From: Psammoneis japonica
Lineage: Eukaryota
Assembly (NCBI GenBank): GCA_008632985.1
Contig: QPGO01000211.1
Coordinates: 1 to 64,000, forward strand
Reading direction: 5' to 3'
DNA length: 64,000 bases
This document shows, in pieces, positions 19,750 to 54,892 of the stretch. Made by a program: the position numbers and the translations under genes. Each line of letters begins with the position of its first letter. Position 1 is the stretch's first letter. Under the pieces are notes generated by a model. That model saw only the letters and a list, made by a program, of their open reading frames with translations. It searched no databases and had not been told where the DNA came from.

Positions 19750-21120
19750 AAGGCTTGACGGTAGGCTTCGAGGCGGGTCTGGTCGGCGGTAAAGGGATGA
19801 TAACGATAAAACAAAATGTGTGTTGTTGTTGTTGTGGTCGTTGAACAGCGGCCGAAGAGGAAGCTTATGCTGATCCTTCTTCTTCTTCTTGCATGATGGG
19901 TAAGGTTGTTACTATTGATTGATTGCAGATGGTATTTCTGTTCGAAAGAGGAGATTTTTCTTGTCGCGTGGGGTTTCTCTATCAATCTCCATGTCATGGT
20001 TGTAGCCACGTCATCTTCTTGACAAGATGAAAGAATAAGGCTGCCGTTATGTTGTATCTGGGTGAACAAATCCCACTATGTAAAAAACAAACCCATAAAC
20101 AGATGGATTAGCTTGAACCCAAGATGACCGGTAAAACATCTTTATAGCGGCAAATCCCATTTTCTTCGACAGGAGCTCAATCACATAGGAGCTGAGTAGA
20201 GGGAATTTATTCGCATCCTTCGCCGATTCCGGAAAGTGAGCAATGATGTGACTAACTGCCAGACGCCCACGCCATCCCGTCAATCCGTAAAAAAGCTGTT
20301 CAACGTCCTCGATCTTTTCAACGTTATTCGTTACTTCTGTAATGGCTTTCATCATTGGCAGCCCGAAAAGACACCTCGCCGACCCACCAAAAAACCAATG
20401 CTCAATTTCAACGACTTTGTCAATCGTATGCTCTTCATGATCATCGAGTCGGCCAGCCATCCCGACTTTGAAATCTTCGATAATTTGCGTCTTTTCTCTT
20501 CTTGCTGCATCTTTTTCACGAAGGAGTCAATTTCCGTACGTGTCCATGAAGGACAGCAGATTTCTTCCCACCCAAGTTCAGCAGGGTTTCCTGGGGAATC
20601 ACAACATGCTGGCCAGTGGCCCAAACCATCTGATCATAGTCCAACTCTGCACCACAACTGCTGACATCCTTCTTGTTTTCTTCACACATGCCATCCACAA
20701 TGCACATGTTAAACCTCTGTTCCTCAAGAAGGGCTGAAGGTTTGAGGTGCTTGAACTGTGGCTCTCCGCTGTCAGGGTGCATGGTCATCACCACAAAAGA
20801 GGGACAGCTGGCAGTGGGCAAAAATGGCACCACAGGGCCCAACAGGTCATGTTGAATCCATGGTTTACAACTTGCTTAAGAGCCAAAACCAAATGGTGGT
20901 TGATTTTCCAACTCCAGGGGGGCTTGTGCGGCACAAGAACTGCTTCTTAAAGATTGCCACAGGCCAACCAAAGCATCTCAAATTCACAAGGAATTCATCT
21001 TGGTTGCAGACCTGCTTTGTCCAAATGATGAATGTCTCAGATGACAGCATCTGAATTGCTGTGCTTTCATCTCTCTCATCCCTCACATCCTGTTTGATTT
21101 GAGTTTTGCTCAACATGGAT
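19750..21120 (-). pseudogene. Disrupted P-loop NTPase resembling Crinkler/RHS-associated CR-NTPases
   Basis: SPPGVGKSTT Walker A; CIVDG; CPSWTRTEI; WFFGGSARCLF; NPSVYGFVF; several frameshifts; 3' limit uncertain. Confidence 0.5.
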
Positions 21121-22439
21121 CATCTGCTCAGCAATGAAAGTTGTGTTTGTCAGTCTCCCTGTCTCTCAGCCATCATGCTCAACAACAGTTGCATGCCACA
21201 AAGAATGTTGCAAGGCTGTTGTCAGTTGTCTCCAATGCAAGACTGATTGTTGAGAAGCTGGCATCTCCTTCGGTCTGTGGTCTGTGTGCCAGATGTTGTG
21301 GATTTGCATGCAACAAGTTGCCCAGCTGTGCTCACCAGCAATTTGGCCCAGAAAACTCACAATTTCAGCCAGTTTTTTTTTTCGTTTAAAGACATTTGAC
21401 TGGATGCTGTGTTGCTGCTCATCAGCAGGGTATCTCTGTTTGCCCTCTCTCTGAGGCATCATTCTGGAGGTGATGTGCTGGAGTTTTGGCCAGTCATGTT
21501 TGCAAACAACAACCAAAGTGACCTGGCCCATTTCATGCTTCCATTTGGGAATGCCCAAGCCAGAGCAACTGCATCTGGCTTTGATGCTGTCAGAGTGTCA
21601 TCACAGTTGTGCTCTCCCTGCACCCATTTTTGTTCAGCACTTTGCACCATGGAACAGCAAGCTAGAAGAATCCAGTCTCCTGGCCCTCTGTGCAATGCCA
21701 TCACACAAAACTTGCTTTGGTGGTGCACCTCAACACAGCACCCCACATTTGGACATGCTGCATCTCTGCCAAACCTCTGCAAGAGTTGGCCAAGATCATG
21801 TGTGTTGTGGAAGAAGGCCACGTGACATGCCTTCTTCCACCCATGCAGCAGCGGCACCTCCAGCACCTGATCCCCAGCTCCATGCTGGTTCAACTTGTCA
21901 TCTGTGCAGCTGGTGCCAAGTGCTGAGGAAGCTCACAACCAAGAAAACCACAGTGCTGATGCTAAAATGGATGATGGCACCACCGAGATGTGGTTTGTGC
22001 ACTTTCCTTTGGTGCACCCATGGCGTCAGCCAGCCCACACCAGTGTGTCAAATTTGGCATGGTGGAAGCAGGTGGACCTTGTCTCGGCAGCTTAAAGCAA
22101 ATTGATGAAGAAGAAACAAAGTCAAATGATTGTGTGGCAGCAAAGCAACAAATGTGGCAAGCAATGTGTTGTAGATCTGGCTTTTGACTCTCTCCGCTGG
22201 CACAAGGGACACCCAGTGGCTAGATCTCCAACCAACTGGAACCTTGTCATGTCTCCAAAATTGTTTCCGTTGAAGCACGTCATCTCCATTCTCAAACAAA
22301 AACAAACTAAATTACAAGAAAGGCTTGCATGGACAAGCCAAGGTTTAGCCACACCCATGCATGGAAGTTTTGCGCTTGATCTCTGCATGTTGTTGTGACA
22401 TCACCACTCGTTTTGACTTGGCACATGCAACAACAGATC

Positions 22440-24380
22440 ACAAAACATTGAGTTGCCACCTTGTTTCATGGGGACGAGTCAAATGGTGACATGCAATGCA
22501 TCGAAACTCCAATTGTTTGCCATGAAAACACAGACTGATCCCAATGCATCGTGTCGACATCACTGAAAATTGCACCGACACTGACAGCGCTTCCATCTGC
22601 TGACACAGACACAGCCTCTCCAAACCAATCGCATTCAGCCTCTGCATGTGAAAGAATGTCCAACTGATTCCATCTCATTGAGTTGGCATCGCATTGAAAA
22701 ACTCCAACATGACCCACATCTTCCAATCCATTGATGTCATGAGACCAACTTCCAATTGCCACAACATTTCAATTCCCACTCAAGGACACAGACCTGCCAA
22801 AAAAGTCACCTGGCTGTGACGTGACCAAAGATTGACCACGTTGCATCCATGTTGACGTGTTTTGGTCATGAACACAAACCAACACCCTCTCATCATTCAC
22901 CTTGACTGATGGTGCACCCATGGCCATGATCAAACTGGTGTCATCAAGAGATGCAGAACACCCACACAGACCAAACCTGACTTGTCCATTGATTGGACAG
23001 CCCAATGGAACCCATTGCAATGATGAAGCTTTGCATTCAAACACCAAAACCTGCCCAGCAAGATCTCCGCCGGCATCATTTCCCTGTGCCCCAATGCAAA
23101 CAATGGTCCCCGAGCTGCTCAAGGACACCAGTGCCCCCAACTCATCACGGGCAACTTGCCCAATTGGTGTCTGTCCAAGTTGGTTCCATGACAATGTTTC
23201 AATGTTGCATTGAAGCAATCAAGCCAATCCAGAATTGGTGCCATTGTCAGTGTCATCCCAATGAGCCCCCATGGCCAGAATGACTCCCATCTCCGACAAT
23301 GACACGGAATGGCCAGAGCAAAAAGAAAAATCACCCGCAGCTTGTCTGTCAATGTCGCTGCTGAGTTGCACCCAATGGCTTGCAGAGAAGTCACATTGAA
23401 AGCTCAAGCTTGGCCAGCCTTTGCTTCACTGCTGCTGTTCAACAGTGCGCCCACAGCCAAAATCGCACTGTCACCATTCAAAGACACGGATCCCCCAAAT
23501 TCATCACTGTTGGCTTGTCCAACCAGTGCTTGACCCATGGGCATCCACTGCTGTGTGGTGGAATTGATCCATTGCATGGAAACAAAACCAGATTTGTGAG
23601 AACGGCATTGCTCAGCTCTCCCACAGCTGTGATGGTTCCGTCTCACGACAAGGAGATGGCGGCACCAAAACAATCATCATCAGCATTGCTGTGCAGAACT
23701 TGTCTGAGAAGTTGCCCCACTCCTGGAGTGGCTGGTGTGGGAGGCAGGGATGGATCAGTTGACAGCGTCAGCAAACTGGTTGATGCATTGTCACCACCTC
23801 CTCCTGTCACTCCAACAACAATTCTGACTGCGGCACCAACAACCAAAATTGCAGTTCCCAACGCAATTGAGTGTTTCCGATGCTTGTTGCTCAAGGGTGC
23901 CTCGTTTCCAATCTGATCATGTTCATCATTGCTGGGAACAGCTTCAACAACATGTGCATCCGCTTCAGCCACAGGAGCTGTTTGTCGAAGGCAAGAGCAG
24001 ATTCCTTCTCTTAGACAAGCATTTTCCTCATCATTTGATTGAGCAAGTTCGCCTTCTGCAACAACTGCACTCTCATTGTCTGCACTCGGTGGTGACATGG
24101 GATTAGAATGAGCTGTTTCCAGGTCTGATGTGAGCAACATGTGATCACTGCCATCAATTCCCCATCCACGATGGACCTGACACCCTTGGCTTGCAGCGCA
24201 TGCCCCTGCAAGACTGGCTGCCAAAGCTTTGCCGGCATCCTCTTCCTGGTTTGAATTCTCTCTTTCTTTGTTCCCATCGTCATCATCTTGTTCACTTTGG
24301 TCTTGCTCCTCTCGATTTTCTTTGTCACAAAGATGCTGACTGGCACATTGTTTCTTTGTTGCCCCAATCAACGCCCCAGT
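22440..24380 (-). pseudogene. Decayed type II membrane protein with FG-GAP/integrin-alpha-like beta-propeller repeats (copy A)
   Basis: Repeats WxQLGQxxxGQxxxDEFGxSVSLSxxG; single TM segment (IALGTAILVVGAAVRIVVGV); in-frame TGA stops; Tyr absent. Confidence 0.75.
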
Positions 24381-24892
24381 GAGCAGCTTTCACCTCCTCG
24401 ATCGCTGACTCGTCATGTGTTCTCTCAATCAAATTTTCTTCTTTGTCGTCACTTTCAGCTTTTGCAGCTCATTTGTTGGGACCATTCATTGCTGTCCTGG
24501 AGTGCAGTCAACTTTGTAAAGTGTGGCATTTTGTGCTGACTGCTGACAATGATTCAGAGTGCAGGGAGCCCTGTTCCCTGTGTGCCTCTCCGTTGCTCTG
24601 CTCTCAGGATTTTCGAATTTGCTGTGTCCAAGACTGACAACTCCCCAAGTTCCATGGATGTGAAGTAAAAGTTTGCACGCATCATTGTTCATTTGCACAT
24701 TCATGTGTTAACACAGAAATAAATTGACACACAATGTCAACGTCTTGGATGCACTGCTGTGAAATGTCAACAGTTGGCGTGTGGAGAGGAATCTTTTCAA
24801 TAATTTTGTACGATGAGAGTGCTGTCATTGCCGTCTGAGTCTCAAGTAAATGATGCTTTCGATGCTGCACCTCTGTTGCTTCTGAAAATCAG

Positions 24893-26660
24893 ATGGGAAC
24901 AATGAATTGCTCCAAAGAAAGGCCAAAAAAGATGGATGGATTGGAGAAAGGAGACATGGAAGGCGAACACGAGCAAGAACAAGAACAAGCACCCCTCGAT
25001 CTGGCGAATCGCATTCATGAAACACAATTGGAGGAGGAAGACAGCAATGAAGACACTGACACAAGCATTCCGTTAACCATGTTGCAACCTGAAGGAGGTG
25101 CTGCTGAGGCAGACAGCATCACAACCATGTCCAAGTTGCAGTCTTGTCAGTCAAATGCAGGTCTCATGCTTTCACGGGTTGACAATGCAGAAATTGATCT
25201 GCCGAGAGCCAAACTTGCCCAGTCCAATGATGGGGAAAATGTTCGGCTCCAAGCAGAGGTTTCTCACCTTCGTCAGTCACATCTGGTTGCTCAGGCGGCT
25301 GAGGAGATTCGTGAAGACATGTCGGTTGACAATGAAAATGCAAAGAAAAAATGATGTCACAGACGTCTCATTGTTTTTGTTGTTCTCCTTTTGGCGATTG
25401 TTCTGGTTGTGGCTGTTGCAGTGCCCGTTTCTTCCAGCACCAACAGCAGCGGCGACATCAACATTGAGAATCCTGAAACACTGAAACAAGTTGCTGCATG
25501 GCAACCCATTGGACAAGTCTTGCACGGCAATGCCCAGGAGGATTTTTTTGGAACCTCCAACTCCTTGTCAAGGGACAGGACCACAGTGGCCATGGGAGCA
25601 TGTCGATTTGTCTCCGTGCATTGAATCAACCCTGACACTCAACAGTGGACACCCATTGTCAAGAATTGGTTGGATGAGCCATTGGTGACAACTTTGGGTG
25701 GTCCTTGTCATCAAATGGTGCGGGCACAATTTTGGCTGTTGGAGCATGTGATGTTGACAGTGACGGATTCAGTGCTGGTCAAGCTCAGGTGTTTGAATGC
25801 AATTCCTTCATGGACCACTGGCTCCAGCTTGGCAGTGACATTGATGGAGGGGTTTCGGGTGACAGGTTTGGTTTTTCATTGTCCACATCCGAGGTGGGAG
25901 ACATTCTTTCCATCGGAGCACCGTTTGATGACACAGGCAGCGGTCGCCATTCTGGATCAGTCCCATTGTTTCAACTCAAATGTGGTGCTTCCTTGTGGAA
26001 CCAACTTGGACAGATGCTGATTGGACAAGCTGCAGGTGATGAATTTGGAGCTTCAGTGTCCCTGAGCAGCTCAGGAAACATCGTTGACATTGGAGAACTC
26101 AAAAGTGGATTGATCGGAAGCTCTGCCGGTCCGATTTTGGCATTTGAATGCAATGCTTCAATCTCACAATGGGTTTCATTGGGCAATCCAATTGACGGAC
26201 AAATTGCTGATGGTCAGTTTGGAATTTCTGCTTCTCTCAATGACAGCGGCTTGATCATGGTGGTGGGCGCATCTGGAAGCAACAAGAGAGTGTCAGTTCA
26301 TGCCCTCAACTGCACATTGTGACATGGATGCAACGTGGCCAAACACTGCTTGCTCCGCAGCGAGGAGACAATTTTGGTGGATCCATGTTGCTGAATGGGA
26401 ATGGAGCTGTCTTGGTTGTTGGGAGTGATTCTCATGATGTCAATGGATCAGTGAATGAGGGTCAAGTTTCAATCTTTCAATGTGACACCAACACAGTGTA
26501 ATGGAGTTGAATGGGCAATCACACAAATGGCACGAGTCTGAGTTTGATCATTTTGGACATGCCGTGTCCTTGTCGGCAAACAGAAGTGTTGTTGCAGTTG
26601 GTGTGTGGGAGAGAGGTGTCAATTTCGACCAATCGGGGTTGGCACATTTGTTCACAGTAA
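24893..26660 (+). pseudogene. Decayed FG-GAP-like repeat membrane protein (copy B, head-to-head paralogue of copy A); a third fragment lies at ~26800-26960
   Basis: Shares LAQSNDxEN, the TM segment and WLQLGSDIDG..GDRFGFSLS / WNQLGQMLIGQAAGDEFGASVSLSSSG with copy A; stops and frameshifts. Confidence 0.75.
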
Positions 26661-27923
26661 AAATTAGAGCCTTGATTTTTGCCCTTTGCGGTTTGACTTG
26701 GTCCAATCCACCTCTGGTCATGAGTGTTGATTGTCACAAAGCCCACAATGGCACGTCAATGTTGACACTGGTTGAAACCAGAACACATTGCAAGCAAAGC
26801 TTTGGATCCAATCAATGGACAAATCACCAATGGTTGGTTTGGGTTGTCTGCTTCTCTTGATGACAGCAGTTTAACAATGACAGTGAGTGCACCTGAAGGC
26901 AATGAAAGTGTGTTGGTTTACATCCATGACCATGAAATGTCAACATGGAAACATTTGCCATTCAGCTTGGTCCCAGCTGGTGGCATGGCAGGAGCATTGA
27001 TTGTCTGACAATGACACAGCAACCTTGCAAGTGGTCATGGCCAGGTGCCCACACAAGAATGAATGACCACCTTGACATCTTCCATCACCAGAAAACCCTT
27101 GTGGCCCATCAAGGTTAAGGTTTTCACAATGTGCTGGCTTTGCTGTTTCTCATTGAGAAACTGTGCTTTGTTGAGGAATGTGGGCTGAACAAGAATTGCA
27201 GACTCAAAACGAAACTTGGGCACCTGCAATTGTGCATCAATCTCCTGTGTTTGTTTGGCACATCATCCTTCATGGAGTGTTCTTCTGATCATCCTCCTTC
27301 CACCAATTTGCACCTTTTGTCACACTTCTTTGCCTGGTGGACAAAGGAGGTTGGTTGAAACAGCGCTGGCTTTGGGCACAGGCTTGTTCCCACACCTGCC
27401 TGAAGCAGGTGTGTGGGGCACTGAGGACAATGTCAACAATGCACTTGCATTGGGCATTGGGCATTGCTTCATTGTTGGCAGTGCTGAATGACTCCTGTTG
27501 AAAACAATTGGGTCAATCACACTGGTGCTTTTGGTGGCCATCATCATGATGTGCTGTCTGCACCTGAGAGCTTCTTTTTCAAGCAAAAAGCACTTGACTG
27601 CCAAAGTGCAAAACAACAACACAATGTGCTGGCAGCATTTCAGACAGGAGCTCTCTTTTGAAAGTGACACAGCAACATCATCAATTGCACAGAGCTGTTC
27701 AAGGAGAAAACACTGTGCACACTGGCACACTTGAGAGAGTTCAAGCAGGATTTTTTTTTGTTTCAAGCATTTTTGGCTTTGTCATGGTGTGCAAAAGCTG
27801 CCAATGGCATTCTTGTGGCTGGTTTTGATAGAGATCCTTGTGTCGGTGCAGGAATGACACTGCCGCTGAGACCCCCCCCACACCAGGAGAATTGTGATCC
27901 CTGTGAGTCCGGGTGCACTGTTC

Positions 27924-28370
27924 TGCAATGTGCAGCTGCTGACAAGAGCCAATGCATCATGGCAACGTGTCACAGCCTTTAAATGTCACAAAGGGCGTGA
28001 CAAAAACAACCTTTTGTCTGCATGCATGCTGCATCATGAATTCACAGCGGAGTGGTTCATCGCAACCATTGGGCAGGAGACCAGGGGTTCGAAACCCTGA
28101 GTGGGAGTTGTCTGCAGCAACGTTGATCACTGTCAAACGCGCAAAACTCTGTGCAGTTCTGCATGTTCCTTCGCACGTACCCACACTGTTCTGCCAAAAC
28201 CGTGCAGTGTCAGTGCACGCCAGTAAAGAGCCGCATGGATGCGTGACACATGGGGAGGAGTGCAACGCACAGCTGCTGACAAGAGTCAATGCATCATGGT
28301 GACGTGTTGCAGCCTTTAAATGTCACAAAGGGCATGACAAAAACAACCTTTTGTCTGCATGCATGCTGCA
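27924..28370. repeat. ~110-bp direct repeat (27924-28033 and 28261-28370) downstream of the copia RNase H remnant
   Basis: cagctgctgacaagag...cctttaaatgtcacaaaggg...gcatgcatgctgca occurs twice. Confidence 0.9.
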
Positions 28371-28399
28371 GTTCTTCTGGTGAACAGCGCAGAGCACAG

Positions 28400-29540
28400 T
28401 GGTGCATTGTCGCTGCCAGGCTGGGGGCCGGTGGCAACTGCTCAACATGTGTCCAAGTGTCAGCAGAACAGCATTTGGGCAACATTCTTGGCAAGTGTGT
28501 TGCTGCAGTTGGCGGTCGCATTGATGCAGCCCATCTTGACCATGTCACGTTCAACCCAATCCTGCAGTGCAAAGTGGTGCATGTCCACATGATGGGTGTG
28601 TCTCATGGGTTGACTGGCACTGGTCATCATGAGAGATGCATTGTTGTCTTCACAGATCAATGTGGCCTGTGTGTGTGGAAATGACAGTTTGCCAGGACAG
28701 AATGAAGGTGCAGCACCATCTTTCCTGCACCCAATGCCGCAACAAGTTCTGCTTCTGAGGAGGATGCAGAGACAGTTGGTTGAACTCCAGTCTTCCATGC
28801 AATGGCAGTTCCAGCAAGCAGGAAAGCTGTTCCTGCAACAGATCATCAATGGTGCATGTCAGCAGCCCAGCTGGAATCCTTGTGTCCAGTCATTTCATGT
28901 GGAGATGCGGCCTGTGGAGGTTGTGGCACTCTGGTGTCATGGGGCACGGTCTTGGGTGATGGTGGTGGCATGAAGGGGGGCATCTCGTCAGGGCATTGGC
29001 ACCAGCATGTGAGACCAAAATCCAGATGTTGCTTGAGGAACTGAAGGGCATTCTTGACCCCATCGCAGTGCATGGTGCCTGGGTTGGACCCGAGCTGGCT
29101 CAGCTTGGTTGTCCATGGCCCAGATTAATTCACCAATGGCCTTCAGATGCAAGAAACCATGTTGTTGCTAGAGGGCCTTGGAGGCAGCAGCATCTGCGGG
29201 AGTGGGGGGCTCATCCAACAGTGTGGAGCAGGAGGCATCACCTGGCATGGGAACATCAGGGGATGTCTGGTGTGTGTCAGCTGAGCCAGCAAGAAAATTG
29301 CAGTTCGTGAGCATCCGCTTCACATGGGAGGTGCTGTGGAGCTGAGTGCAGTCCTGTTCTGTTCCACATCACATCCCAGAAAGAGAGTCAGGAGGCCCTG
29401 ATGTTTGATCTTGCCACCGGTGAGATGACAATCCACAATGTTGCAGCAGATGCAACAACGCGTCTCGTCCGAGTTGGTGGTGATGGTGAAGTCATCTGCT
29501 TGTTGCAGGAAGAGCACCTCCTCTCCATTCACTGTGCCAC
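28400..29540 (-). mobile_element. Ty1/copia reverse transcriptase C-terminus plus RNase H remnant
   Basis: EVLFLQQADDF (from RQVDDF); DSSWAAD...AIAWKTGVQPTVSASSSEAE; TLICEDNNA...HVDMHHFALQDWVERD. Confidence 0.85.
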
Positions 29541-31009
29541 TGTGGGTGCATGGTTCATGGGTGGTTGGAGTCAGGTGCAGGCAGAGAAAAAGAACAAGAG
29601 ATGTTTGTGTGCCACCATGAGAGAGACAGAAAGGAAAAGCAAAGAAGGCTTGTGAATCTGAAAAAGTGCCATGATGAGTTCCAGGTTTGCCAGGTGATCA
29701 ATCCTCCCCCTGTTGGCTGCTGCTGCCGCAACCACAGCGGTGCAGTTGACAGCATTGGCGTCCACAGCAATGACTTCACTCCTGCCAGTCCTTCCAACAA
29801 TGACAGAAGGATTTGTTGTGAGTCCTTCCGCAACCTCTTTCAACCACATGAAAAAACAGCAGCAGCAGCAGCAGCACCAGAATCGTCATCCTTGTTGCAT
29901 TTCTTTCAAATCCATGTTTCATCCTCTTCTGGCAGCAGCAGCTGCCACCATGAATGGAAGTTCCAAAAGTGGCAACCCCAACAAAAAGAAGTCCGTGCAA
30001 AGAAAAATTCGTGCCACTTCATCCAGCAGTGGCAGTGCTGCTGCTACGAGGAATCAAAGCAGCACCAACAACAAGGCACAAACAAAACCAAAGAGATCTC
30101 ATCACGCCATGGCCGTCCTGGCCATGCCACACACAGCCATGGATTGCATGGCCAATGAAGCAATTTTGAAAATGATTGTGCAGCGTGCAGACAAACTGTC
30201 CATGGCTCTAAGATGCCGAAGTCCTCAACCACCAAGTTCGGCCTGTTTGCGCAAGCATGTTGGCAAAGTCCACTCACAACTTTGGGATTGCATCATGAAC
30301 GATGAAGCACAAGACTGTGAATTTTCAGAGGAGAAAGAGAGCCATTTGCCACCAGTGTTTGATTTGCCTGATGTTTGTGCCCATCCGCAAAATCCACCCA
30401 ACACAGCACCAGAAGCCTGGTTGGAAATTCAACCCAATTTGAAGGGCGTGTGTGCAGTCACAATGATCCAATGGGTTGCATCTTGGAAGAAGCAATGGGA
30501 AGGGGTTGTGATTTTCAACACACACCCGTGGCCTGGAAGCTCAATTTGCTGCCTTGAATGCCGATCGACAAGCTTGCAAATTGGGTTCAGTGCAAGCTGC
30601 GCCAGTCCAGCCGCAACACTGCCCCAATGTGAAACAAGTGGCACAAACCAATCAAGTTATTTTTGTTGATGATGAACCTGAAGACAAGTGCCAATTGCTG
30701 CTCTGGCAGGCTTGGCAAGAGCAACAAGGACAGGAACGACAAATGCAACAGAGCGTGGATGATGATGATGATGACAGTGGCAGCACAAGCAGCACGAAGG
30801 ATGCCTTTTTGGATGTGGCAACTGGCACCGCTTTTTCGGATGCAGTGGTTGATGATGAATGCCCCAATGACCAGCTGCTTGGCGGAGCCCGGCTGCCAGC
30901 CAATCAACAAGTCTTGTGCAATTCCACATGTTGTGGTGGAACCTCTGCGCTGTGTTGTGTTGAGAACAAAAGATGTGATGCAATGGGAACCCAGAGGTGT
31001 TGTGCAACT

Positions 31010-32990
31010 CATTGCAACAAACTTTCTCCCGCTGATGCCGATGCCCTTTGCCAAGCCCTGTCCTTTCTCAACCCAACCAACAACCCTGCCATGCAACCAG
31101 AAATCACCACTGGCATCCGTTTTCTTGGCCAACCAATCGGCTCTACCAAATTCGCTTCAAATTTCCTGATGGACAAAGCAGAAACTTTCACCTCACCGAC
31201 AAACAAACTCAAAGCACCCCATTTCACAAATGTGCAATTCCATCCATTACACACCTCCTTGCCGCAGACGTTTGTCACAACCTGATGCACAACACCAACT
31301 GCCCCAACCCCTTCGAATGGGCCTCCCCCTTCAAAGACACCATCATCAGCCACTCACTCCGATTTCTCTCATGCCCTGCTGAAACAACTGCACCTCTCCT
31401 GTCGGCAGCCCATCTTGTTGCCACCCTCCCAGTCTCCCTCAGCGGCGTCGGATGCCACGACATCTCTGCTGCTGCCATCCTTTCCTTTGTCACCTCCCTT
31501 GCCCATTCCATCCGCTGCACCAAACATGGCATCCCACTTGCCGGTGACCAACTCTTCCACCTCCCCCAAAGCTGTTCCACTGCCCTTGGCTCCTGGTCTA
31601 ATCTACAATCCAAACTTTCACTCTGTGCCATCTTCAAGCACCATGCTCCCCCAAAGCTGTTCCACTGCCCTTGGCTCCTGGTCCAATCTACAATCCAAAC
31701 TTTCACTCTGTGCCATCTTCAAGCACTGTGCTCCCATCCTCTTCCAATGTGACTCACCATCCTTTGAGTCCCTCAGACACTCTGTCGAAAACCACAACCC
31801 ACGTGGCCTTGCCCAATGACTCCACCACTGTCATCACAAACACAGCATGCTCTCATAAATCCTGAACAACTCTGCCATCCAGCCAGCTCTCCCATCCCTT
31901 CTTTCTCCCCTTGCAAGTTTGTGCCTTCACTCCCTCTCAAGACTTCACCCATCCAACAGATTGCCCTCTGCATCACTCACCCTCCTTCTTCTGCAAAAGC
32001 TCCGACTCCCTGCTGTCTCTTCTGATTTTCTTTCCAAAGACTGTCCTTGTGGCTGCACCTGACCAGATCCATGTGGCAATCATGCATTCACCTGCATCAA
32101 AATGCACAAAGCCCCACTCTTGAACCATCTTCGTGACACCCTTTGCACGATCATTGAAACCCTGGGCCCTCTCAGCGGCCTGTGCCGAACCTGCCAACAA
32201 GTTTTTCTCAACCCAACCAGTCTTCTGGCCAATCATCCTCTTAAACGCCCCACTGACATTGGAGCACAACTCATTCCCGGCTCCACCCTCCCTGACGCCC
32301 CATCTGCACATCGATTTCTCGCCATTGATGTTGCCGCACCTCCAGCTCCCCCCCCCCCCCCACCTCCTGCACCTGGTTTGCCTGCCCCTGAAAACCCTCT
32401 TGCCAAGGCTCACCTCAGCAGTGCTTGGGACAAGCTGCTTGGCCGCACAACATCTGCAGCCTGCCACTTAGACATCATCAATGCCGTCAACCATGCTGGC
32501 TTGTTCCTTCTCCCTTTTGCCATCCACCACCTCAGTGGCGTTGGACACCATTTCCATGTTTTCTTTTTTGGCCAATCTGCCACGTCATCCTCTCCAATGC
32601 CTCCTCTCCCACCCAAACCACCCTGGACAAACCCATCTGACCTTTCCCACTCCCAAGCTTCCTTCTCGGCATGCAAAAACTCCCTTCCAGCACCCTCCAA
32701 CTTTCTCACCCGTGCCAACACTGCCTGGAGCAACACATCTCTCCTGACCGACTCGGCGACTCACATCACACCGCTGCTCCCCTTCTGTGGGCATCCCAAA
32801 TCCTGAGCTCAAACTTCAGCTTTGCCCTTTCATCTCACCTCTCGAACTGCCAACAACTCCTTCTCACACACCCAACTGTCGCCAACACATCCAATGCACA
32901 CCCGTCCATCCACACCATCAGCCAATCCTTTTTCTCTTCACCACCCAGCGTGCCACACGCGACTCTCCCTCCAACCAACCACACATCTCC
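31010..32990 (+). mobile_element. Non-LTR retrotransposon 3' remnant with restriction-like endonuclease (CRE/R2-type architecture)
   Basis: GIRFLGQPIGS (end of RT); LPVSLSGVG; CPCG...DPCGNHAFTC..HK...NHLRD Zn knuckle at ~32040-32140; RPTDI...AIDV (REL PD..D motif). Confidence 0.75.
31561..31730 (+). repeat. 85-bp tandem duplication inside the non-LTR remnant
   Basis: Units 31561-31645 and 31646-31730; ctccc microhomology at the junction. Confidence 0.95.
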
Positions 32991-33220
32991 ACTGCCCTCT
33001 CTCTAGAGCAGAGAGAGACACCCAATTTTAAAACATCAATCAACGCCCCACATTCTGTGCAGAGGTGCACAAATTGTCTGTTGTCATTCCCACACGCGCA
33101 TTCGCACACTCAGCACGCTGCATGCGGGCGACAACAGATGATTCACGCACCTCTTCTGTGCCCGGTGCAAACAACAGAGTGTGGTCAATTCGTTCCTCTG
33201 CCCCATTGATGTTTCTTTAA

Positions 33221-33686
33221 CCCTTCAACCACCAGGGGAGCAAATCTCCACGGGTGGAGATTTGCTCCACTCAAGGATGTGTGACGTGTCATGCACTTTT
33301 ACAATGATGCAATGAACACAGTAAAAAAATGTCGCATCGTGTGCAATCTGCGTAAAGTGTGCCACGTGCATTTGCTCATTGGGAGCAAATCTCCACCGGT
33401 GGAGATTCTCTCCCAGGGTGTGGTGTCATTGCTCTGTTTGTGATGGCAATTCATGATGACCTCCATTGTTAAAGGTTGAGATTTAGTTCCTCTCTGTTCA
33501 CAGATGAAGCTTGCAAAAAACCCGGTGTTAAAAGTCGACATTGAACTTTCTAAATTGCAAAAAGGGTGCCTCCAGATTTTCAGCGAATGCGTGTTCCAGA
33601 ACAAAATCGCGCGAATGAAATGTTGCACATGTCTGAAATTACTTCATTTGCCACATTTGTGATGCAAGCGCCCGGTGGTTGAAGGG
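33221..33686. mobile_element. piggyBac-type MITE (466 bp)
   Basis: TTAA target duplications at 33217-33220 and 33687-33690; TIR CCCTTCAACCACC(A/G)GG; two internal ~32-bp palindromes. Confidence 0.9.
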
Positions 33687-33789
33687 TTAAGATGCCAGCG
33701 GTGCAAGTGAACAATGTGAAAGGAGAGCCTTTGACAAAAATCGTGTCCGGGGAAACTGCAGCGCAGGCTGAAGAGAGAATTTCCAAATG

Positions 33790-34800
33790 AACAGAGGGTG
33801 TCCTGGAGAATTCAGACGGTGTTGCGCTTTCCGCTGGTGATTGTATCACGGCAGAAGGAGTGCCTTGTGTGTTTGAGCCTCTGCAGCAACAACAACAAGT
33901 TGACACAGTGCCAGAAGAGTGCAAACAACTTGCTGCCTTTGCAAAGGGGGAAATGGACAACAGGACGAAGCACAAACCCATGTCAGAAGCATCGGTGCCA
34001 TTTGCAAAAGAAACATTGAAAGGGTGCGGATTTACAGTGGAAGTGGCCCCTTTCATCACCAAGTGCGGTTCCGGAGCAGACCCACCCCCATGTTCATGGA
34101 AAATTGTGGACGGAAAACCCAAGGAGTGGAAGAAAGGCAAACATGCTGGCACACCTGGAGCTGGGGACTGGGTTCGTGACAACCTGTTGGGTGACGACAC
34201 AAACTTTGGTCTCAAGGTTGTTGCCGGTTCTGTGCTGCCAAAGATTAAAGCCAATCGTCGCAGTGCTTCGGGAACGGGAGATTTAGCCATTGGAGATCCA
34301 ATTTCGATGAACCATGGAGAAGAACATTTGTTTGCGAACGGTTTGGTTGAATTGAAAACACATGAGCATCCCTTGAAAACTGGACAAAGTTTGCTCCAGC
34401 TGCTGGCATTGTCGATGATCAGTCGCCTTAAAACAGGCGTTGCCCTTCTCGCTGCCGACTGCCATGCAAAATGGGAAACCTTTCACTTCTCGAATGGTCA
34501 TACGGTGCAACGCCAAATTTATCAGCACGGCCGAAAAGCTTGGGAAGATTTCATGGAATTGATCAAGTCTCTGGGAATGCAGGTCTTTAAGATAAAAATG
34601 GACACAATCGACGAAGAGGACGAGCAGAACCTGGATGGTTTTCATTTTGGAGACCAAGAAAGTAAGAAATTAGAAGCAGTGTAGGACGAGGCGTTGCTCG
34701 AGCGCATGGCTGACCATCTCGGCGATGTCTACGGCGAACGACCAGTTGTCCCATTCTGGGCCCGTGCAGAGTCAAGAGTTCCTGACTGCTGCGTCTGACG
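33790..34800 (+). pseudogene. Degenerate PD-(D/E)xK restriction-like nuclease fold protein (Crinkler REase-like)
   Basis: SGTGDLAI...GLVELKT...QSLLQLLALS...VALLAAD motif order; premature stop at 34684. Confidence 0.45.
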
Positions 34801-34899
34801 CACAGCCATCAACAGGAGGAGGCGGACAGCTGCTGCCTGTTGCGGCATAAATGACAAATGCTTCTAGTGTCTCAAAGCCAGCACAAGGCACTCCAGAGC

Positions 34900-37800
34900 A
34901 GTGCACCAAGTTGACGATAATTCAAAAACAAAAACCGGCCTTGTCGTAGAACAAAAACAAAAACACCCCTTACACACATTTCCACACCAAACCACGCATG
35001 TGCATGTGGGGAGCCACAAGCCAACAATGCCGGCTTCAGTCGACAGCAGCAAAAACAAAATGGGCAAGACACACAATGGCGCGTTTGAATCCATTTGTGA
35101 CGGCAATTGTCAATCAATCATGACGCAAGTCAATGCAGTCATGGCTGCTCAGTCAAGGCAAGCCCAGAACCAAGTCCAGATGGCTGAGGCGATCTCTCAG
35201 ACGCTAACTGCGGAAGCTAGAGACAAGATCATCGCCAAGAGTGAGCAATGCAAGATCAACAACATACAAGTTGGTGCACTGTTCTTCAAGTTACTCACCC
35301 AGAAGGCCATCGTGGACACTCGCTCAACTGCAAACTGCTTCGGCAAGAACTTGTCCAGCCTTGACTTGCACATGTCAACCTGCAACTCAAACATCAAAGA
35401 GTTCAACAAGTGTGTCAAACTCAACCATGATGGCCTCAGAGCTGGGGGAGAAGGCTGCGATGACCCAGTCATCAACCCATTCAAAGGTTACGCAGCAGCT
35501 GGCAACCAAGCATTCATCAAGTGCATGGCTGACATTGAACAGAAGTGTGACGATGGTGAGGACCACACTCCGGAACAAGTCATGCAACTGGCTCTCAACA
35601 AGTGCACCAATCTTGATCAAGCAGAGAACTGGGGAGCACTCTCTCCAGAGCAAGAAAGGATTGTTGCACTCACCGCGGAAGTCAAAACCATCAAGGACCA
35701 CAACCTCAAGCTCTCCAAGGCTCTCAAGAGCACTCCTGACAAGTCCAAGGGAGGTGGCGGCAAGCAGAACTCCAAGAACAAGAGCAAGAACCCAAAGCGT
35801 GCCAAGAAACAGGACAAAGCCTGGAAGAAGACTCTGCCAAAGGACAGCAACCCCACAAAGACTGTCAATGGTCACAAGTGTCACCACAAGAGTCAGAAGG
35901 GATGCGCCTGCCATTGGTGCAAGTGCCACTCTGCTTGGGTGGCTCACTTGCCTGATGATCCGGGAGACAAAGGCTGTCAACTTCGCAAAGCTCAAGAATC
36001 TGAGAGCCGCTCATCCAACTCCAACAAGAAGGCATCCTGCACAAATGCTCTGGCCTCAATCATCAAGGACCTGGAGTCCAAGGAATGACTGATCCAGGAA
36101 GCATTCTGGACACAGGTGTTCTGCATGAAGGTGGCCCTCATCACGTTCACAATTGCCCTGGTCACCACGAGCTTCGTAGACACGATGACCCACTGTTGGT
36201 GCTCACAGTGTTCACGGCACTCAACCCACCAGAGAACAAGTGGAAAAGTGCATCCAAGTGAGCAATGACGTTGGGTGAGTGGATTGTTTCACAAATCCCA
36301 GCTGACGGCATGACTGGCAGATGCAAACCAAGGTGAAACAAGAGTCAACACTCACCGCGATGCATCACTCCCAAGAAGAAAGGCCATCCCACTCAAGTGG
36401 CACACAAAAGGCTCAATGCAAGATCACCTTTCACAAGACAGTCTACGCCAACTCCTCAACCACCACGACGCCATTCAAACAAGAGCTGAGGTTGGAACCA
36501 GCATCTTGTCCATGCAACCTGCACAATGTCGAATGACAGACCACACTTTGTCGGCAACGTCCTGCAAACAAGCAGATCAAAGGAGCAGGCAGATGGTTAG
36601 ATGCAGAAGGAGAAGGCACACTCAAGTGGTGCACCAAGGATGATGACGGACAGGTGCACATGATCACCATCTACGACGCACTGCATGTTCCCAACTCACC
36701 CATTTGCCTCCTCTGCCCTCAGCAATGGAGCCGTCAAGCACAGGATCATCACCCTGAACCACATGGAACAACTTCCTGGAACCAAGACAATGGTCTCCTG
36801 CTCATGTGGGATCAAAGGAAGCACACAAAGCTGGTCCCTTGGACCAACAATTCCAACGTTGCATGCTTCCGTTCCACACCCGGTGCTGCTGACTGCCGGG
36901 CATTTGCCTTTGCAGTGGATGCTGATGACAATGTTGAGACTGTTGAGCACGCAGCCCATCAGACGCACGTGACATCCACAGATGACAAAAGTGACTCAGA
37001 GTCCATGGATGCTGCAAATGACAAAGATGCCTTCACAAGTCCTGACGAGACAGGTCCTGACGAGACCCAAGGCACACGCAACAATGTTGATGAGGAAGTG
37101 CCACTGTTGTTCAAACCGATGGATGCTGCACACAGATCCAACTCACCTGATGAGAACCTCAAGGATCTGGTGACCCCAGAAGTCCAAACCTGCCTGCAAG
37201 ACCCCATCAAAGTCATCCCTGATGATGATGCCCTGGCGGCCACCGACAACCAAGCTGGCAGCTCCCAAAAGTCTGCCCGACGTAGATGCCCATAGACTTG
37301 CACTGGTTTTTCGTCAAAAGTCTGCCCGTTTGGAGTGCAGCTTCTGCACAATTTTTGCACCAGTGTGTCTCATGAACCGTGGACTTTTCTACGTGATTTT
37401 TTGTGCAGAATTCGTGCAACAGAAATCAAACCGAACATCTCACGAGGCAGCGGCCTTTTTGGGATTTGTTGTGCACACAATGCACCAGATTCTCGCATGT
37501 GGACACAAAGGTGGAAAAGACAAACAAACACACTGGGAACTTCAGCGAAATTCTACGTGCAATCGGGCAGACTTTTGTTGTGGGCAAACTTTTGGGAGCT
37601 GCCAGCAAGGTGAATTGTTGCGTTGGCACTGCTGTCTTGGACACCAATCATTCAAAATGACAAAGCTCCTGGCTGTGTTGGGTGTCCTCCTGCGACACCT
37701 CCTGAAGGTCAAGAAACCCAAATGTGCTGGCTGCCTCTGTGGCGCCATGACCAAACGCCCTTGGTGCACCAAGTCCAAATGGAGGTCAAACATGCATGTC

Positions 37801-38850
37801 GCTGCAAAGCCAGGGGAGGTCATGTCGGCAGATCAACTCAAAAGCTTGACCCCAGGCTTTGTCCCTCAACTCAAAGGGAGACCTGCAAAACAGCAATGCA
37901 GAGCAGCAACAGTGTTTGTTGATCACCATTCAAAACTGGGATGTGTGTTCCTGCAACGATCACTTGCCTCCAAAGAAACCCTGAAGGCCAAGCATGCTTT
38001 CAAAGCCTTTGCGAGACGACATCATGTCCAAATCAAACACTGCCATGCCAACAACGGTCAAGTTGCTGACAATGCTTTCACACAAGACGTTGAGAAACAG
38101 GGTCAGACAATGTCATGCTGTGGCATCAACACCCACTTTCAAAATGGCATTGCCGAGAAGCGAATCCGCAACCTGCAAGAACAGACTCACAAGCAGCTGC
38201 TGCACGCAAAAGCAAGATGGCCAACAGCCATCATTGAGATTAATCTCTGGCCAAGTGCACTGCACAATTCCAATGAGCTCAAGAACAACTCACGCAGCCA
38301 TGAAGATGGCAGCTCGCCAATCAAATGATTCGCCTCCATCAAAGTTGCTCCAAATCTCAAGCAACACCACACTTTTGGATGCCCAGTCTACGCACTGGAC
38401 AACTGACTGCAGAGTGGACAGAGAGCACCTGAGTGGCAATCAAGAGCAAGGTCAGGAATCAACTTGGGACCATCACCAAGACACACTGGATCAGTCAACA
38501 CAGTGCTCAATCTTGAGACGGGACTTGCCTCACCGCAGTTTCACGTCCAATTCACAATGACTTCTTTGAAACAGTGGGCCCTTCAGCAGGGAATGCACCG
38601 GCTTTCTTGCAATGGCAAACCGCACCAGGACTCAAGAAACAAAGAACATCAAGATTCAACATCTTCAAGACCCAAAAGGAAGTGAGGGAGCCATGCTCCA
38701 CTGTGCCAGTGCAGACCACTTTGGCGCCAGAACCCGATGTTCCGCAACAACTCAAAGATGAGCATTTTCCTGTTGTGGAGGACAAGATGCCAGAACCAGC
38801 AGGAGATGCACCAACTGAAGACACTCAGGAGATGGCAGTGTGTTGGAGCA
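34900..38850 (+). mobile_element. Diatom Ty1/copia (CoDi-like) retrotransposon remnant: gag, protease region, GAG-pre-integrase and integrase; RT absent
   Basis: Gag with WCxxHxxWxxH...C knuckle; GEGTLKW...DALHVPNSPICLLCPQQW; LLRWH..LGH...CAGC; SADQLKS, ATVFVDH, HFQNGIAEKRIR, GPSPRH...LETGLASPQFHV. Confidence 0.9.
37255..37605. mobile_element. 351-bp MITE inserted in the copia pol region
   Basis: 24-bp TIR ctggcagctcccaaaagt(c/t)tgccc; 4-bp TSD CAAG at 37251-37254 and 37606-37609; removing it restores D-N-Q-G-E-L-L-R-W-H. Confidence 0.9.
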
Positions 38851-38899
38851 TCTAAAATGAGTGGGGCAATGTCCGGAACCCAGAGCTGTTGAAGAGAAG

Positions 38900-54790: not shown

Positions 54791-54892
54791 GTCCAAACAC
54801 ACGAAAGACACCCTGACAAGTTTTGCAATTTCTGCGGGTGATCTGGGAACGTGATCACCGGCAGAAAGATAGACACACCGACAGTAATAAGA

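Follow-up and report, generated by a model that had tools for sequence, protein, structure and literature searches.

What removes nearly every TA dinucleotide from some blocks of a genome, along with much of the CG, and what do the contexts of the few surviving sites say about the agent? The question is raised by the window (the whole 64,000-nt stretch of DNA that was analysed), about 25 kb of which holds TA at ~0.07 and CG at ~0.33 of expectation.

Composition and content of the depleted blocks

In blocks of transposon and duplicated-gene DNA, almost all TA and most CG have been converted to TG or CA. The TA-depleted zones as defined here comprise 24,886 bases with 110 TA, compared with 1,363 TA in the 37,345 bases of the gene-bearing remainder, and about 93% of TA and about two thirds of CG have been removed from them. 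The observed/expected ratio (o/e) of TA is bimodal along the window and the blocks are sharp-edged, with 0–9 TA per kb in the main block versus ~36 per kb in genes; the interval 22350-26490, outside the earlier tally of survivors, is equally depleted (0–9 TA per kb). Depletion of CG runs parallel to that of TA across the window (Spearman 0.71–0.75). The change is restricted to these two dinucleotides: while TpA is down to 0.07, CpA/TpG rise to o/e values of 1.7–1.8, AT and the remaining dinucleotides are unchanged, and AA is not lost (o/e 1.20 in depleted versus 1.18 in normal DNA). Per kb, the loss of 32 TA and 35 CG sites equals the gain of 67 TG/CA sites (sums by hand), and the balance between TA plus CG loss and TG plus CA gain likewise holds for the Copia remnant compared with 80 relatives.

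Table 1. Features of the window (positions in the window; strand where assigned).
Feature	Position	Strand	Basis or remark
Main TA-/CG-depleted block, first part	20750..33230		TA per kb; contains five features between 22300 and 33220
Decayed FG-GAP-repeat gene, copy A	22300..24000	-	Pfam FG-GAP_2; blastx frames
Decayed FG-GAP-repeat gene, copy B	25000..26950	+	Pfam search; blastx frames
Very abundant repeat	27370..28703		Single positions covered by as many as 50 distinct contigs of run X1
Decayed cellular-type gene fragment	29900..30943	+	Matches N-terminal part of homologues; one frameshift
C-rich stretch	31000..33220		85-nt tandem duplication at 31561-31735
Half-depleted stretch	33231..34999		TA 15.3 per kb, CG 40.1 per kb
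Copia-type LTR retrotransposon remnant	35000..38800	+	gag, protease region, integrase
Main depleted block, remainder	38801..41800		Includes G-rich 39000-40000
Small depleted island between genes	6001..7000		5 TA
Small depleted island, internal direct repeats	44200..45800		CG far less depleted, o/e 0.6–0.8
Small depleted island	48400..49200		TA profile
Small depleted island	51000..52400		TA profile
Small depleted island	54000..54800		TA profile

The FG-GAP copies form an inverted pair (1022-nt alignment, 66% identity) in which Tyr is kept in none of 19 Tyr-consensus columns. The abundant repeat contains an internal 110-nt direct repeat, and other copies of it still have TA at positions that read CA or TG in the window; the two 85-nt tandem units of the C-rich stretch differ at a TA/CA site. 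Homologues of the cellular-type fragment carry a cytidylyltransferase-like domain at their end. No reverse transcriptase was found in the Copia remnant, whose 17 Tyr-consensus columns now include 11 Cys, 3 His and 1 Tyr; overall, Tyr is still held in only 1 of 39 such columns.

Because the TpA process removes the stop codons TAA and TAG, the dead DNA is open over long stretches in each of the six phases, and transposon domains are missed by profile searches because Tyr codons are erased; annotation of such DNA thus meets spurious long frames and hidden transposon domains.

Direction, strands and timing of the change

Intact homologues, set beside the decayed Copia element and the decayed cellular gene, show that TG/CA arose there from ancestral TA and CG. 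Of 228 conserved columns in the Copia remnant, 59 carry a replacement (18 by CpG transitions, 12 by TpA transitions, 18 by other single changes and 11 by multiple changes), and the polarised changes number 12 at TA, with three T-to-C and no A-to-G changes outside TA. The cellular gene fragment has 31 of 88 conserved columns replaced, seven by CpG and five by TpA transitions. Conserved Tyr, Arg, Thr, Asp and Glu are replaced as TA and CG transitions predict, and the intact homologues have ordinary Tyr content (1.6–5.9%) with ordinary TA and CG.

The process acts on both strands. On the Copia sense strand, CA stands at 127.4 and TG at 84.9 per kb, compared with 121.0 and 89.9 expected under symmetric conversion. 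The alignment of the two FG-GAP copies contains 35 double transitions between CA and TG versus nine of all other kinds (3, 2, 2, 1 and 1), and the mutation therefore took place after duplication. Residual TA is still hot, as 3 of 61 sites differ in the contigs that a public run (X1) provides for this locus, compared with 4 of 6,893 bases outside YR dinucleotides (p=2e-5).

CpG is lost most heavily where T precedes the C or A follows the G, survival being 0.20–0.25 for TCGA and 0.5–0.6 for GCGC, and 13 of the 20 differences listed between the window and the run's contigs are CpG to TpG/CpA transitions. It is most simply read as deamination of methylated cytosine, and such decay leaves the TA loss unexplained. 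Diatom transposons are described as carrying DNMT5a-dependent CpG methylation (Hoguin et al. 2023, PMC9998398), and 5-methylcytosine deamination is consistent with the CpG-to-TpG/CpA conversion of these blocks, a likeness drawn here from sequence.

Flank hierarchy of surviving TA

TA survives mainly as TTAA, CTAA/TTAG, TAAA and TAGA. An initial annotation had tallied by hand the survivors at 20700-22350 and 26490-33220 and proposed a gradient from YTAR through the mixed classes (YTAY or RTAR) to RTAY; the full count gave identical numbers (24, 15 and 2, n=41; chi-square p=1.7e-6 against a 1:2:1 expectation), as did a recount of 39000-41050 (five YTAR and one mixed, n=6). The gradient was borne out across all depleted zones, in which the YTAR/mixed/RTAY split is 56/45/9, compared with 241/713/409 in the gene-bearing remainder (chi-square 75.4, p=4e-17), and a first-order Markov expectation built from the depleted DNA itself gave p=4e-6. 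A second baseline was drawn from metagenomes: 54 related Copia loci that are intact (273 kb, 9,928 TA) split 17.2%/52.2%/30.6%, from which the depleted zones differ with p=1.7e-20. The same order recurred in the depleted zones outside the three stretches counted earlier (28/29/7, n=64, p=2.6e-8) and in the half-depleted stretch, which was assigned to neither set (11/14/2, n=27, p=0.0012).

TA loss was fitted by an additive per-strand model; survival of the mixed class is 0.095, near the geometric mean of 0.36 and 0.033. The integrated loss rates by the base after TA are 2.25 for T, 1.49 for C, 0.82 for G and 0.30 for A, with non-overlapping bootstrap confidence intervals, every successive difference in rank upheld in 99.9% of 1000 resamples, and similar values across three baselines; the +1 term has a likelihood ratio (LR) of 93, and the rate ratio of Y to R is 3.3 (95% CI 2.4–4.7). 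At the +2 position A protects about 3-fold (LR 38, p=3e-8): the survivors with A there are TAGA, TAAA and TACA, while TAGG, TAGC and TAGT are lost as fully as TAC and TAT. Survival of TACG is 0.10 versus 0.02–0.03 for TACC and 0.06 for TACT, and TACG is not the most depleted context. The proposed target TAY stood insofar as a pyrimidine after TA marks the fast context, but the order is T > C > G >> A, with an additional effect at +2.

Strand placement of the flank preference

The initial annotation also assigned the preference to a strand, as A-to-G change at TAY, and this reading is only partly supported: the product spectrum and twelve DNA-level events agree with it, but Tyr-codon outcomes argue against it. 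Survivor counts are compatible with A-to-G at TA-Y, with A-to-G at R-TA or with strand-symmetric recognition of the duplex, and cannot separate these models because algebraically only the sum of both strand terms is identifiable. The product spectrum was compared with forward simulations on intact relatives as a stand-in for ancestral sequences, and its statistic S, read with a poor class-by-class mass balance, was 22.3, compared with 21.0 for a 3' TA model with TCG-biased CpG decay, 9.9 without a TA route bias and -1.2 for the mirror model. The 3' model led no bias by 16 (16 classes) to 28 (256 classes) log-likelihood units, the 256-class comparison deciding nothing with the small genic baseline. 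The mirror model was worse by at least 53 units with the transposable-element baseline and at least 40 with the genic one, and no bias was disfavoured by 10–28 units even when CpG decay was given a separate route bias. Each of the six non-palindromic classes leans in the 3' direction. The best simulated model fits imperfectly, a comparable 3' model having a chi-square of 78 on 16 classes.

Directly polarised events divide. Log-likelihoods under the 3', null and mirror models are -3.17, -4.16 and -6.6 for six in-window paralogue events and about -3.0, -4.2 and -7.1 for six events from run X1 (hand calculation). The 22 Tyr-codon events (13 Cys, 9 His) give -20.3, -15.25 and -13.6 for 3', no bias and mirror, or -13.4, -11.8 and -11.7 for the 17 that remain after weakly aligned FG-GAP columns are set aside; Tyr codons preceded by A became Cys five times and His never, and those preceded by T became His three times and Cys never, opposite to the 3' prediction. 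Five Ile-consensus columns are now Met and two are Thr (ACA), also against the 3' prediction, an argument softened by the fact that Ile/Met is a common natural exchange. Summed over 34 directly polarised events, partly by hand, no bias totals about -23.6, 3' -26.4 and mirror -27.3.

Alternative explanations

It is very improbable that there was no hypermutation and that this is foreign or unusual DNA that was always poor in TA and CG, or a product of selection or of an assembly artefact. TA is indeed under-represented outside the depleted blocks, in genes (o/e ~0.5) and in related Copia loci, but the ordinary composition of the intact homologues, the pattern of conserved residues replaced and the 35 aligned TG-versus-CA sites between the gene copies all speak for change in place. 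The contigs of run X1 are also 99.8% identical to the window over 13.5 kb (24 differences), although the window could itself derive from this run. An ADAR-type origin, in which retrotransposon RNA is edited from A to I and the changes enter DNA by reverse transcription, deserves hardly any credence, even though one affected element is an LTR retrotransposon and U is preferred before the edited A, as discussed for Bigelowiella natans (bioRxiv 10.64898/2026.01.13.699255). Editing of the sense strand only predicts gains of ~36 TG and at most 23 CA per kb (the latter from CpG decay only), but the Copia sense strand gained 36 CA and 25 TG; T-to-C changes occur on the sense strand of both Copia and the cellular gene, and the FG-GAP pair and the cellular gene fragment, which are not retroelements, are equally affected. 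The neighbour preference of ADAR favours G, from which the order T > C > G > A differs. Because both strands are affected, this explanation was rejected, being refuted for the bulk of the signal. Equally remote is error-prone synthesis of a Pol eta-like kind during repair of the blocks: the A-to-G errors of Pol eta fall on WA, TA being a hot spot, but a generic WA signature was excluded by the comparison of AA set beforehand, AA being untouched, and by the absence of polarised Copia A-to-G changes outside TA.

Two further possibilities concern the site of the lesion rather than its existence. TpA hypermutation that lacks a 3' preference, through symmetric reading of the duplex tetranucleotide followed by a random choice of strand, or through a preferred purine at -2 relative to the edited A (R-T-A), retains an appreciable minority chance: survivor counts are compatible with it, Tyr-codon routes prefer the mirror or no bias, and no bias has the best total over the polarised events, but the product spectrum rejects the mirror and disfavours no bias, and the six non-palindromic classes and twelve DNA-level events favour the 3' side. 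A lesion on the thymine of R-T-A, either oxidised (for example 5-hydroxymethyluracil) or with G misincorporated opposite T, would give T-to-C changes equivalent in sequence to A-to-G at TA-Y, and all results are symmetric under complementation. Hydroxylation of thymine with a TpA preference occurs in dinoflagellate DNA, but we know of no oxidised thymine base of this kind in diatoms, and nothing in the window supports such a lesion, which we consider unlikely. Adenine deamination is what the B. natans authors discuss in their preprint, where the chemistry is likewise a proposal (10.64898/2026.01.13.699255).

Proposed mechanism and significance

The contexts of the surviving TA point to a sequence-selective DNA-editing defence. 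We consider it probable that silenced mobile and duplicated DNA was mutated in place by two dinucleotide-specific transition processes, of which the TpA one is flank-selective. The depleted blocks would represent a silenced Copia element, an abundant repeat, an inverted FG-GAP pair and a dead cellular gene fragment, on which one process would convert TpA to TpG or CpA and the other CpG to TpG or CpA, both at the DNA level. The rate on the strand undergoing A-to-G change would be set by the base that follows (T > C > G >> A) and by the one beyond it (any base but A), placing the preference 3' of the edited A. The lesion may be hypoxanthine that a sequence-selective DNA deaminase with a 5' T requirement forms from adenine, as proposed for B. 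natans, and the process may be aimed at heterochromatic or repeated DNA as genome defence. What the data demonstrate is the direction of the change, its limitation to TA and CG, its occurrence on both strands and after duplication, and the order in which flanks govern survival; the chemistry, the 3' placement and the targeting are the elements that we infer. A TadA/ADAT2-type agent would be a DNA-acting protein of the cytidine-deaminase fold with the motif HxE...PCxxC; no deaminase family match was found among the window's open reading frames scanned against Pfam. The depletion is absent from all 80 related Copia loci of other organisms (TA o/e 0.36–0.93).

More speculatively, a single 5'-T-guided deaminase could make both lesions in silenced, duplicated DNA, producing T-I (read as TG) from T-A and T-U/T (read as TTG) from T-C(G). 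Its target would be TA followed first by T > C > G and next by a base other than A, and the whole would form a defence triggered by duplication that resembles repeat-induced point mutation (RIP) but has a chemistry opposite to that of fungal RIP. If true, adenine editing as immunity would be common to at least two distant lineages of SAR (stramenopile-alveolate-rhizarian) organisms.

Localised TpA hypermutation has been reported once before, in a 2026 preprint on a chlorarachniophyte, which is the closest known case. Here the same signature is found near saturation in an unrelated diatom-like lineage, on transposons and duplicated cellular genes, and the first quantitative flank hierarchy for TpA hypermutation (+1 T > C > G >> A, +2 not A) offers a fingerprint for matching candidate deaminases and the B. 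natans mutations.

Relation to known systems

In the tRNA substrate of TadA and ADAT2-ADAT3, U precedes the edited A, resembling the absolute need for a 5' T seen here; compared with the TadA context U-A-C-G, the 5' T is present, C at +1 ranks second after T, and G at +2 is not favoured. BjADAT2 is described as deaminating DNA at C in TCG and at A (PMC10354150), and CpG decay here also favours TCG, but its adenine context in E. coli is given as GAA, not TA.

Fungal RIP (PMC7296669, PMC2621366) resembles the present case in its dinucleotide-specific transitions, its action after duplication on both copies and its killing of genes, and both copies of the inverted FG-GAP pair are affected here. 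RIP converts CpA to TpA and enriches TA, whereas here TA is destroyed and CpA/TpG accumulate; with TpA at 0.07 of expectation and CpA/TpG at 1.7–1.8, RIP chemistry was rejected.

In B. natans, integrated giant-virus and virophage DNA undergoes A:T-to-G:C hypermutation restricted to TpA, which the authors interpret as a defence of the genome in which a deaminase acts on DNA adenine (Mettrop et al., bioRxiv 10.64898/2026.01.13.699255). According to that preprint, TpA-depleted genes are enriched in transposon domains, the de novo rate rises ~1000-fold in some mutation-accumulation lines only, and 231 mutations are published. The window shares the A:T-to-G:C transitions only at TpA, giving TpG/CpA, and the confinement to blocks of foreign or mobile DNA with the rest ordinary, plus one decayed cellular-type fragment. 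B. natans is a chlorarachniophyte and the present DNA comes from a diatom-like stramenopile; TA o/e is 0.07 here, near saturation, versus 0.45 in the B. natans virus block; and where B. natans has viral inserts as targets, the window has a retrotransposon, repeats and cellular-type genes that are duplicated or dead. CpG decay accompanies the TpA loss here, whereas the Results and Discussion text of the preprint mentions neither CpG nor a flanking-base preference.

Gene content and extent of TA depletion

The window is gene-dense and eukaryotic, with a G+C content of ~48% and long, intron-poor reading frames that include those of an SF3a subunit 2, an RCC1-repeat protein, a JmjC/cupin protein, a mitochondrial pyruvate carrier and Vac14. 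For the JmjC and transposon proteins, the best named relatives come from Thalassiosira, Cyclotella, Nitzschia and Epithemia (45-55% identity), and judged from these two proteins the source organism appears diatom-like. An assembly gap of 43 N (16738-16780) lies within the JmjC/cupin gene frame.

Depleted DNA extends from ~20750 to 41800 and recurs in five small islands elsewhere in the window, with TA at 0.0-0.2 of expectation, CG at 0.05-0.8 and TG plus CA at almost twice expectation. Across 500-base windows the observed/expected ratio of TA is bimodal, and it follows that of CG (Spearman 0.71) and opposes that of TG/CA (-0.80). The stretch 22350-26490, which the initial annotation had set aside as a gene, is depleted to the same degree as the remaining block. 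The ordinary genes of the window (1-20700 and 41800-64000) already hold TA at only ~0.5 of expectation, and 80 related Copia loci of other organisms range from 0.36 to 0.93.

As TAA and TAG are gone, open frames at 20000-42500 are long, 33 stop-to-stop frames of at least 150 codons being found on both strands, many of them overlapping; gene callers can be expected to over-predict here, and Pfam detects almost nothing. The longest open frame between 20700 and 33220 (29698-30666) belongs to a decayed fragment of a cellular-type gene and not to a transposon. G/C skew is strong, reaching -0.5 over 31-33 kb and +0.44 over 39-40 kb, and A/T skew is slight. The stretches 31000-33000 and 39000-40000 possibly represent one type of C-rich element, inverted relative to each other, and self-BLAST gave no alignment between the two.

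Features of the depleted block and their positions in the window
Feature	Position	Strand	Description
FG-GAP-repeat pseudogene, copy A	22.3-24.0 kb	minus	
FG-GAP-repeat pseudogene, copy B	25.0-26.95 kb	plus	head to head with copy A
Abundant repeat	27370-28703		internal 110-nt direct repeat, spacing 337 bases
Decayed cellular-type gene fragment	29900-30943		matches N-terminal region of cytidylyltransferase-domain proteins
Half-depleted stretch	33231-34999		
Copia-type element remnant	35.0-38.8 kb		gag, protease region, integrase

Conversion of TA and CG to TG/CA

Relative to genic DNA, depleted DNA has 32 fewer TA sites, 35 fewer CG sites and 67 more TG/CA sites per kb, with the remaining dinucleotides barely shifted, and the base composition is almost constant because the TA and CG conversions cancel. 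AA stands at 1.20 in depleted against 1.18 in normal DNA; this comparison, which the initial annotation had proposed as a check for the WA signature of Pol eta, rejects that signature.

The direction of change was read from conserved protein columns. The 120 closest protein homologues of the Copia remnant have a normal Tyr content, and of the 228 columns in which 60% or more of these homologues share a residue, the remnant is replaced at 59, by 18 CpG transitions, 12 TpA transitions, 18 other single changes and 11 multiple changes. The CpG transitions turned Arg into Cys, His or Gln and, after C, Asp into Asn, Glu into Lys and Ala into Thr, while the TpA transitions turned Tyr into Cys or His, Thr after T into Ala, and Val-GTA into Ala. 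Outside TA, three replacements are T-to-C and none is A-to-G. The cellular gene fragment, whose homologues carry a C-terminal cytidylyltransferase-like domain, is replaced at 31 of 88 conserved columns (7 CpG and 5 TpA transitions), and Tyr is kept in 1 of the 39 Tyr-consensus columns pooled from three gene sets. From these replacements it follows that the ancestor was ordinary sequence, in which TA and CG were converted rather than originally lacking. The sole retained Tyr codon, at 35489, is TAC followed by G (TTACG); of the 109 further TA that survive, 11 are likewise part of a TACG half-site, with no excess over baseline.

In metagenomes, none of 79 pattern matches to the mutated integrase was confirmed as a close relative, and the 80 related Copia loci recovered by profile search all have ordinary TA and served as a baseline only. 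Since none of the 80 is depleted, the process is not general among organisms with that transposon family.

Strand symmetry, repeats and timing

Both DNA strands are mutated. On the Copia sense strand, CA rises from 91.4 per kb in the 80 relatives to 127.4 in the window and TG from 60.3 to 84.9, where symmetric conversion predicts 121.0 and 89.9, and editing of sense RNA only would limit the CA gain to CpG loss, ~23 per kb. ADAR-type RNA editing is rejected on this strand symmetry and on the presence of non-retroelement targets.

The two FG-GAP copies are 66% identical in an alignment of 1,022 bases, with TG opposite CA at 35 aligned dinucleotides and all other double-transition pairs totalling 9; it follows that the two copies were mutated independently of one another, at an ancestral TA or CG that they shared, after duplication. 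This discordance, together with the polarised replacements, rejects an inherited TA/CG-poor composition. The flank classes of the 35 sites (16 mixed, 7 R..Y and 12 Y..R) carry no information, since the CpG-derived ones cannot be separated from the TpA-derived. The half-depleted stretch holds TA at ~42% and CG still at ~80%, and the TpA process is thus the faster of the two.

The contigs of X1, a public sequencing run that is possibly the source of the window, include the window's own locus. Up to 50 of them cover a single place in 27.4-28.7 kb, and 4-11 cover places in the Copia part, suggesting that parts of the depleted block are repeated. Summed contig depth, which is not readable as copy number, is 20,000-43,000 over the abundant repeat against ~60 elsewhere, and near the lowest seen over the cellular gene fragment. 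Either hypermutation spread from the block into this fragment as adjoining unique DNA, or the fragment arose long ago by duplication of a gene located elsewhere. Contigs and block differ at ~1,126 places, 880 of them by transitions, and other copies of the abundant repeat retain TA at CA or TG sites of the window; for reading the sequence context, 7 TA-versus-TG/CA places were usable among 40 listed of ~1,127 differences. At 22173-22175 a run X1 contig shows two A/G differences (gtAgAtc versus gtGgGtc), of which only the first is at TA.

Over 13,485 bases, own-locus contigs and window disagree at 24 places, the 20 listed comprising 13 of CG versus TG/CA, 3 of window TA versus TG/CA and 4 others. 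Among these listed differences are 3 of the 61 remaining TA sites, compared with 4 of the 6,893 bases that belong to no YR dinucleotide (p=2e-5), an excess which suggests that the TA process is recent or still active.

Flank rule of surviving TA

From the TA sites surviving at 20700-33220, the initial annotation had derived a per-strand A-to-G target, TAY. Its hand tally proved exact, with 24 YTAR (TTAA, CTAA, TTAG or CTAG), 15 mixed (YTAY or RTAR) and 2 RTAY sites over the combined stretches 20700-22350 and 26490-33220, and YTAR making up 5 of the 6 survivors in 39000-41050. Over all depleted zones (24,886 bases, 110 TA) the three classes count 56/45/9, which departs from the gene-bearing DNA elsewhere in the window (241/713/409; p=4e-17), from a 1:2:1 expectation (p=3e-10) and from a Markov expectation computed on the depleted DNA itself (p=4e-6). 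A fourth baseline, drawn from metagenomes and made up of 273 kb in 54 intact related Copia loci, has class shares of 17.2/52.2/30.6% and 36 TA per kb, nearly identical to the window genes, and gave p=1.7e-20. The bias is replicated in depleted DNA beyond the stretches first tallied (28/29/7; p=2.6e-8) and in the half-depleted stretch, which was assigned to neither set (11/14/2; p=0.0012).

Each TA was modelled as two half-sites, one per strand, with survival equal to exp(-(r_top + r_bottom)), and four rates describe the ten tetranucleotide classes. By the base 3' of TA, the rates (95% CI) are 0.30 for A (0.13-0.50), 0.82 for G (0.60-1.10), 1.49 for C (1.26-1.81) and 2.25 for T (1.85-2.79); every step of the order T > C > G > A is upheld in 99.9% of resamples, and the order is unchanged with a genic or uniform baseline, where the fit is adequate (deviance p 0.67-0.76). 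YTAR sites survive at 0.36, mixed sites at 0.095 and RTAY sites at 0.033, with extremes at TTAA (0.56) and ATAT (0 left of ~61 expected). In the multiplicative model from which the +1/+2 estimates come, an A at +2 lowers the rate ~3-fold (LR 38, p=3e-8), and positions +3 and +4 show no effect on TA loss; the survivors include 41 TAGA and 0 TAGG, 45 TAAA, 23 TACA and 3 TACC. The flank bias is confirmed and highly significant, and its interpretation as a target is partly supported, TAY being a fair first approximation to a fuller rule in which TA is followed by T>C>G>>A and next by any base except A.

An origin of the survivors as new TA made from CA/TG was rejected, as the precursor tetranucleotides differ at most ~1.5-fold and TAGG is absent despite common CAGG/CCTG. 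Protection of A by an adjoining methylated C predicts an enrichment of TACG, which was not found among survivors (odds ratio 1.06-1.31, p 0.47-0.86).

CpG survival in the depleted zones is 0.20-0.25 at TCGA, 0.24-0.29 at ACGA/TCGT and 0.5-0.7 at GCGC and CCGC/GCGG, and simulations fit better with a C-to-T route biased to T-C-G than to C-G-A. This T-C-G bias resembles the need for a 5' T in the TA process.

Strand assignment of the flank preference

Because only summed strand terms are identifiable from survivors, namely the 3-prime term plus the complement of the 5-prime term, their counts cannot split A-to-G at TA-Y (the 3-prime model) from A-to-G at R-TA (the mirror) or from a symmetric duplex reading. 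In the products, all six non-palindromic classes skew toward the 3-prime-predicted one. Gains being additive, an odds-ratio test on product pairs is on the wrong scale, and forward simulation was used instead. The simulations started from intact relatives of the Copia element, took rates fitted to the survivors and let CpG decay favour either route. The statistic S is the number of predicted winners per kb less that of the losers, and its observed value is 22.3; the 3-prime model gives 21.0 with TCG-biased CpG decay and 15.3 and 10.0 in the other two CpG settings, and across the three settings S lies between 0.0 and 9.9 for the symmetric model and between -12.2 and -1.2 for the mirror. In log-likelihood, the 3-prime model is ahead of the best symmetric one by 16 units with 16 classes and 28 with 256 classes, and of every mirror model by at least 53; with the small baseline of genic DNA it is ahead by ~10 with 16 classes, and the 256-class comparison does not decide between the models. 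Twelve events read at the DNA level, from places where TA is retained in one copy or allele, also lean 3-prime, with log-likelihoods for the 3-prime, null and mirror models of -3.17, -4.16 and -6.6 in six in-window paralogue events and, by hand calculation, ~-3.0, ~-4.2 and ~-7.1 in six events from run X1.

Codon outcomes lean away from the 3-prime model. Tyr codons, in which both routes alter the residue, became Cys 13 times and His 9 times, and the dependence of Cys:His on the preceding base (A 5:0, C 4:3, G 4:3, T 0:3) runs opposite to the 3-prime prediction, with log-likelihoods of -20.3 (3-prime), -15.25 (null) and -13.6 (mirror). Removal of the FG-GAP columns, a weak set whose homologues are ~40% identical and in which 8 of 19 'Tyr' columns are Phe in the window, brings these to -13.4, -11.8 and -11.7. 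Ile-consensus columns, with 5 Met and 2 Thr-ACA, lean as the Tyr codons do. Taken together, the large, model-dependent product spectrum favours the 3-prime model, and the small direct sets are mutually discordant. A symmetric or mirror reading, which the Tyr codons fit better and against which both the product spectrum and the 12 DNA-level events lean, is unlikely. The A-to-G orientation at TAY put forward in the initial annotation, in agreement with the latter two and at odds with the Tyr and Ile outcomes, is moderately probable, and the remaining probability falls to other accounts.

Proposed mechanism

On the simplest account, the depleted DNA would be silent and CpG-methylated, as diatom transposons are according to one study (PMC9998398). 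The 5-methylcytosines in this silenced DNA would become T, and a sequence-selective activity would alter an A that follows T so that it is read as G. A candidate chemistry is adenine deamination to hypoxanthine, which would fit the absolute need for T before A and is proposed by the authors of a preprint on Bigelowiella natans (bioRxiv 10.64898/2026.01.13.699255). By sequence, a thymine-side lesion at R-T-A would look the same as adenine deamination.

In the tRNA substrates of TadA and ADAT2-3, U precedes the edited A, resembling the T before A in the process described here; TACG is not the preferred context in the window. An amphioxus tRNA deaminase acts on DNA at TCG and at adenines (PMC10354150). 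It is possible but speculative that one 5'-T-dependent deaminase causes both the TA and the TCG lesions.

Comparison with known systems

Fungal RIP likewise targets duplicated DNA after duplication, whereas the chemistry and the effect on TA in the window are opposite to it. Among open-access papers and bioRxiv, no TpA depletion was found reported for repeats of diatoms or other stramenopiles, and the only close precedent found is the 2026 preprint on TpA-restricted hypermutation in B. natans (Mettrop et al., bioRxiv 10.64898/2026.01.13.699255), a kind of system that has itself only very recently been described. The defining sequence signature is common to both, while the window represents another lineage, in which depletion is near saturation, CpG decay runs alongside, and the targets comprise a retrotransposon, repeats, and duplicated and dead cellular genes. 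The flank hierarchy is without mention in the text of that preprint, and the novelty of the finding, open to direct test, lies in the flank rule.
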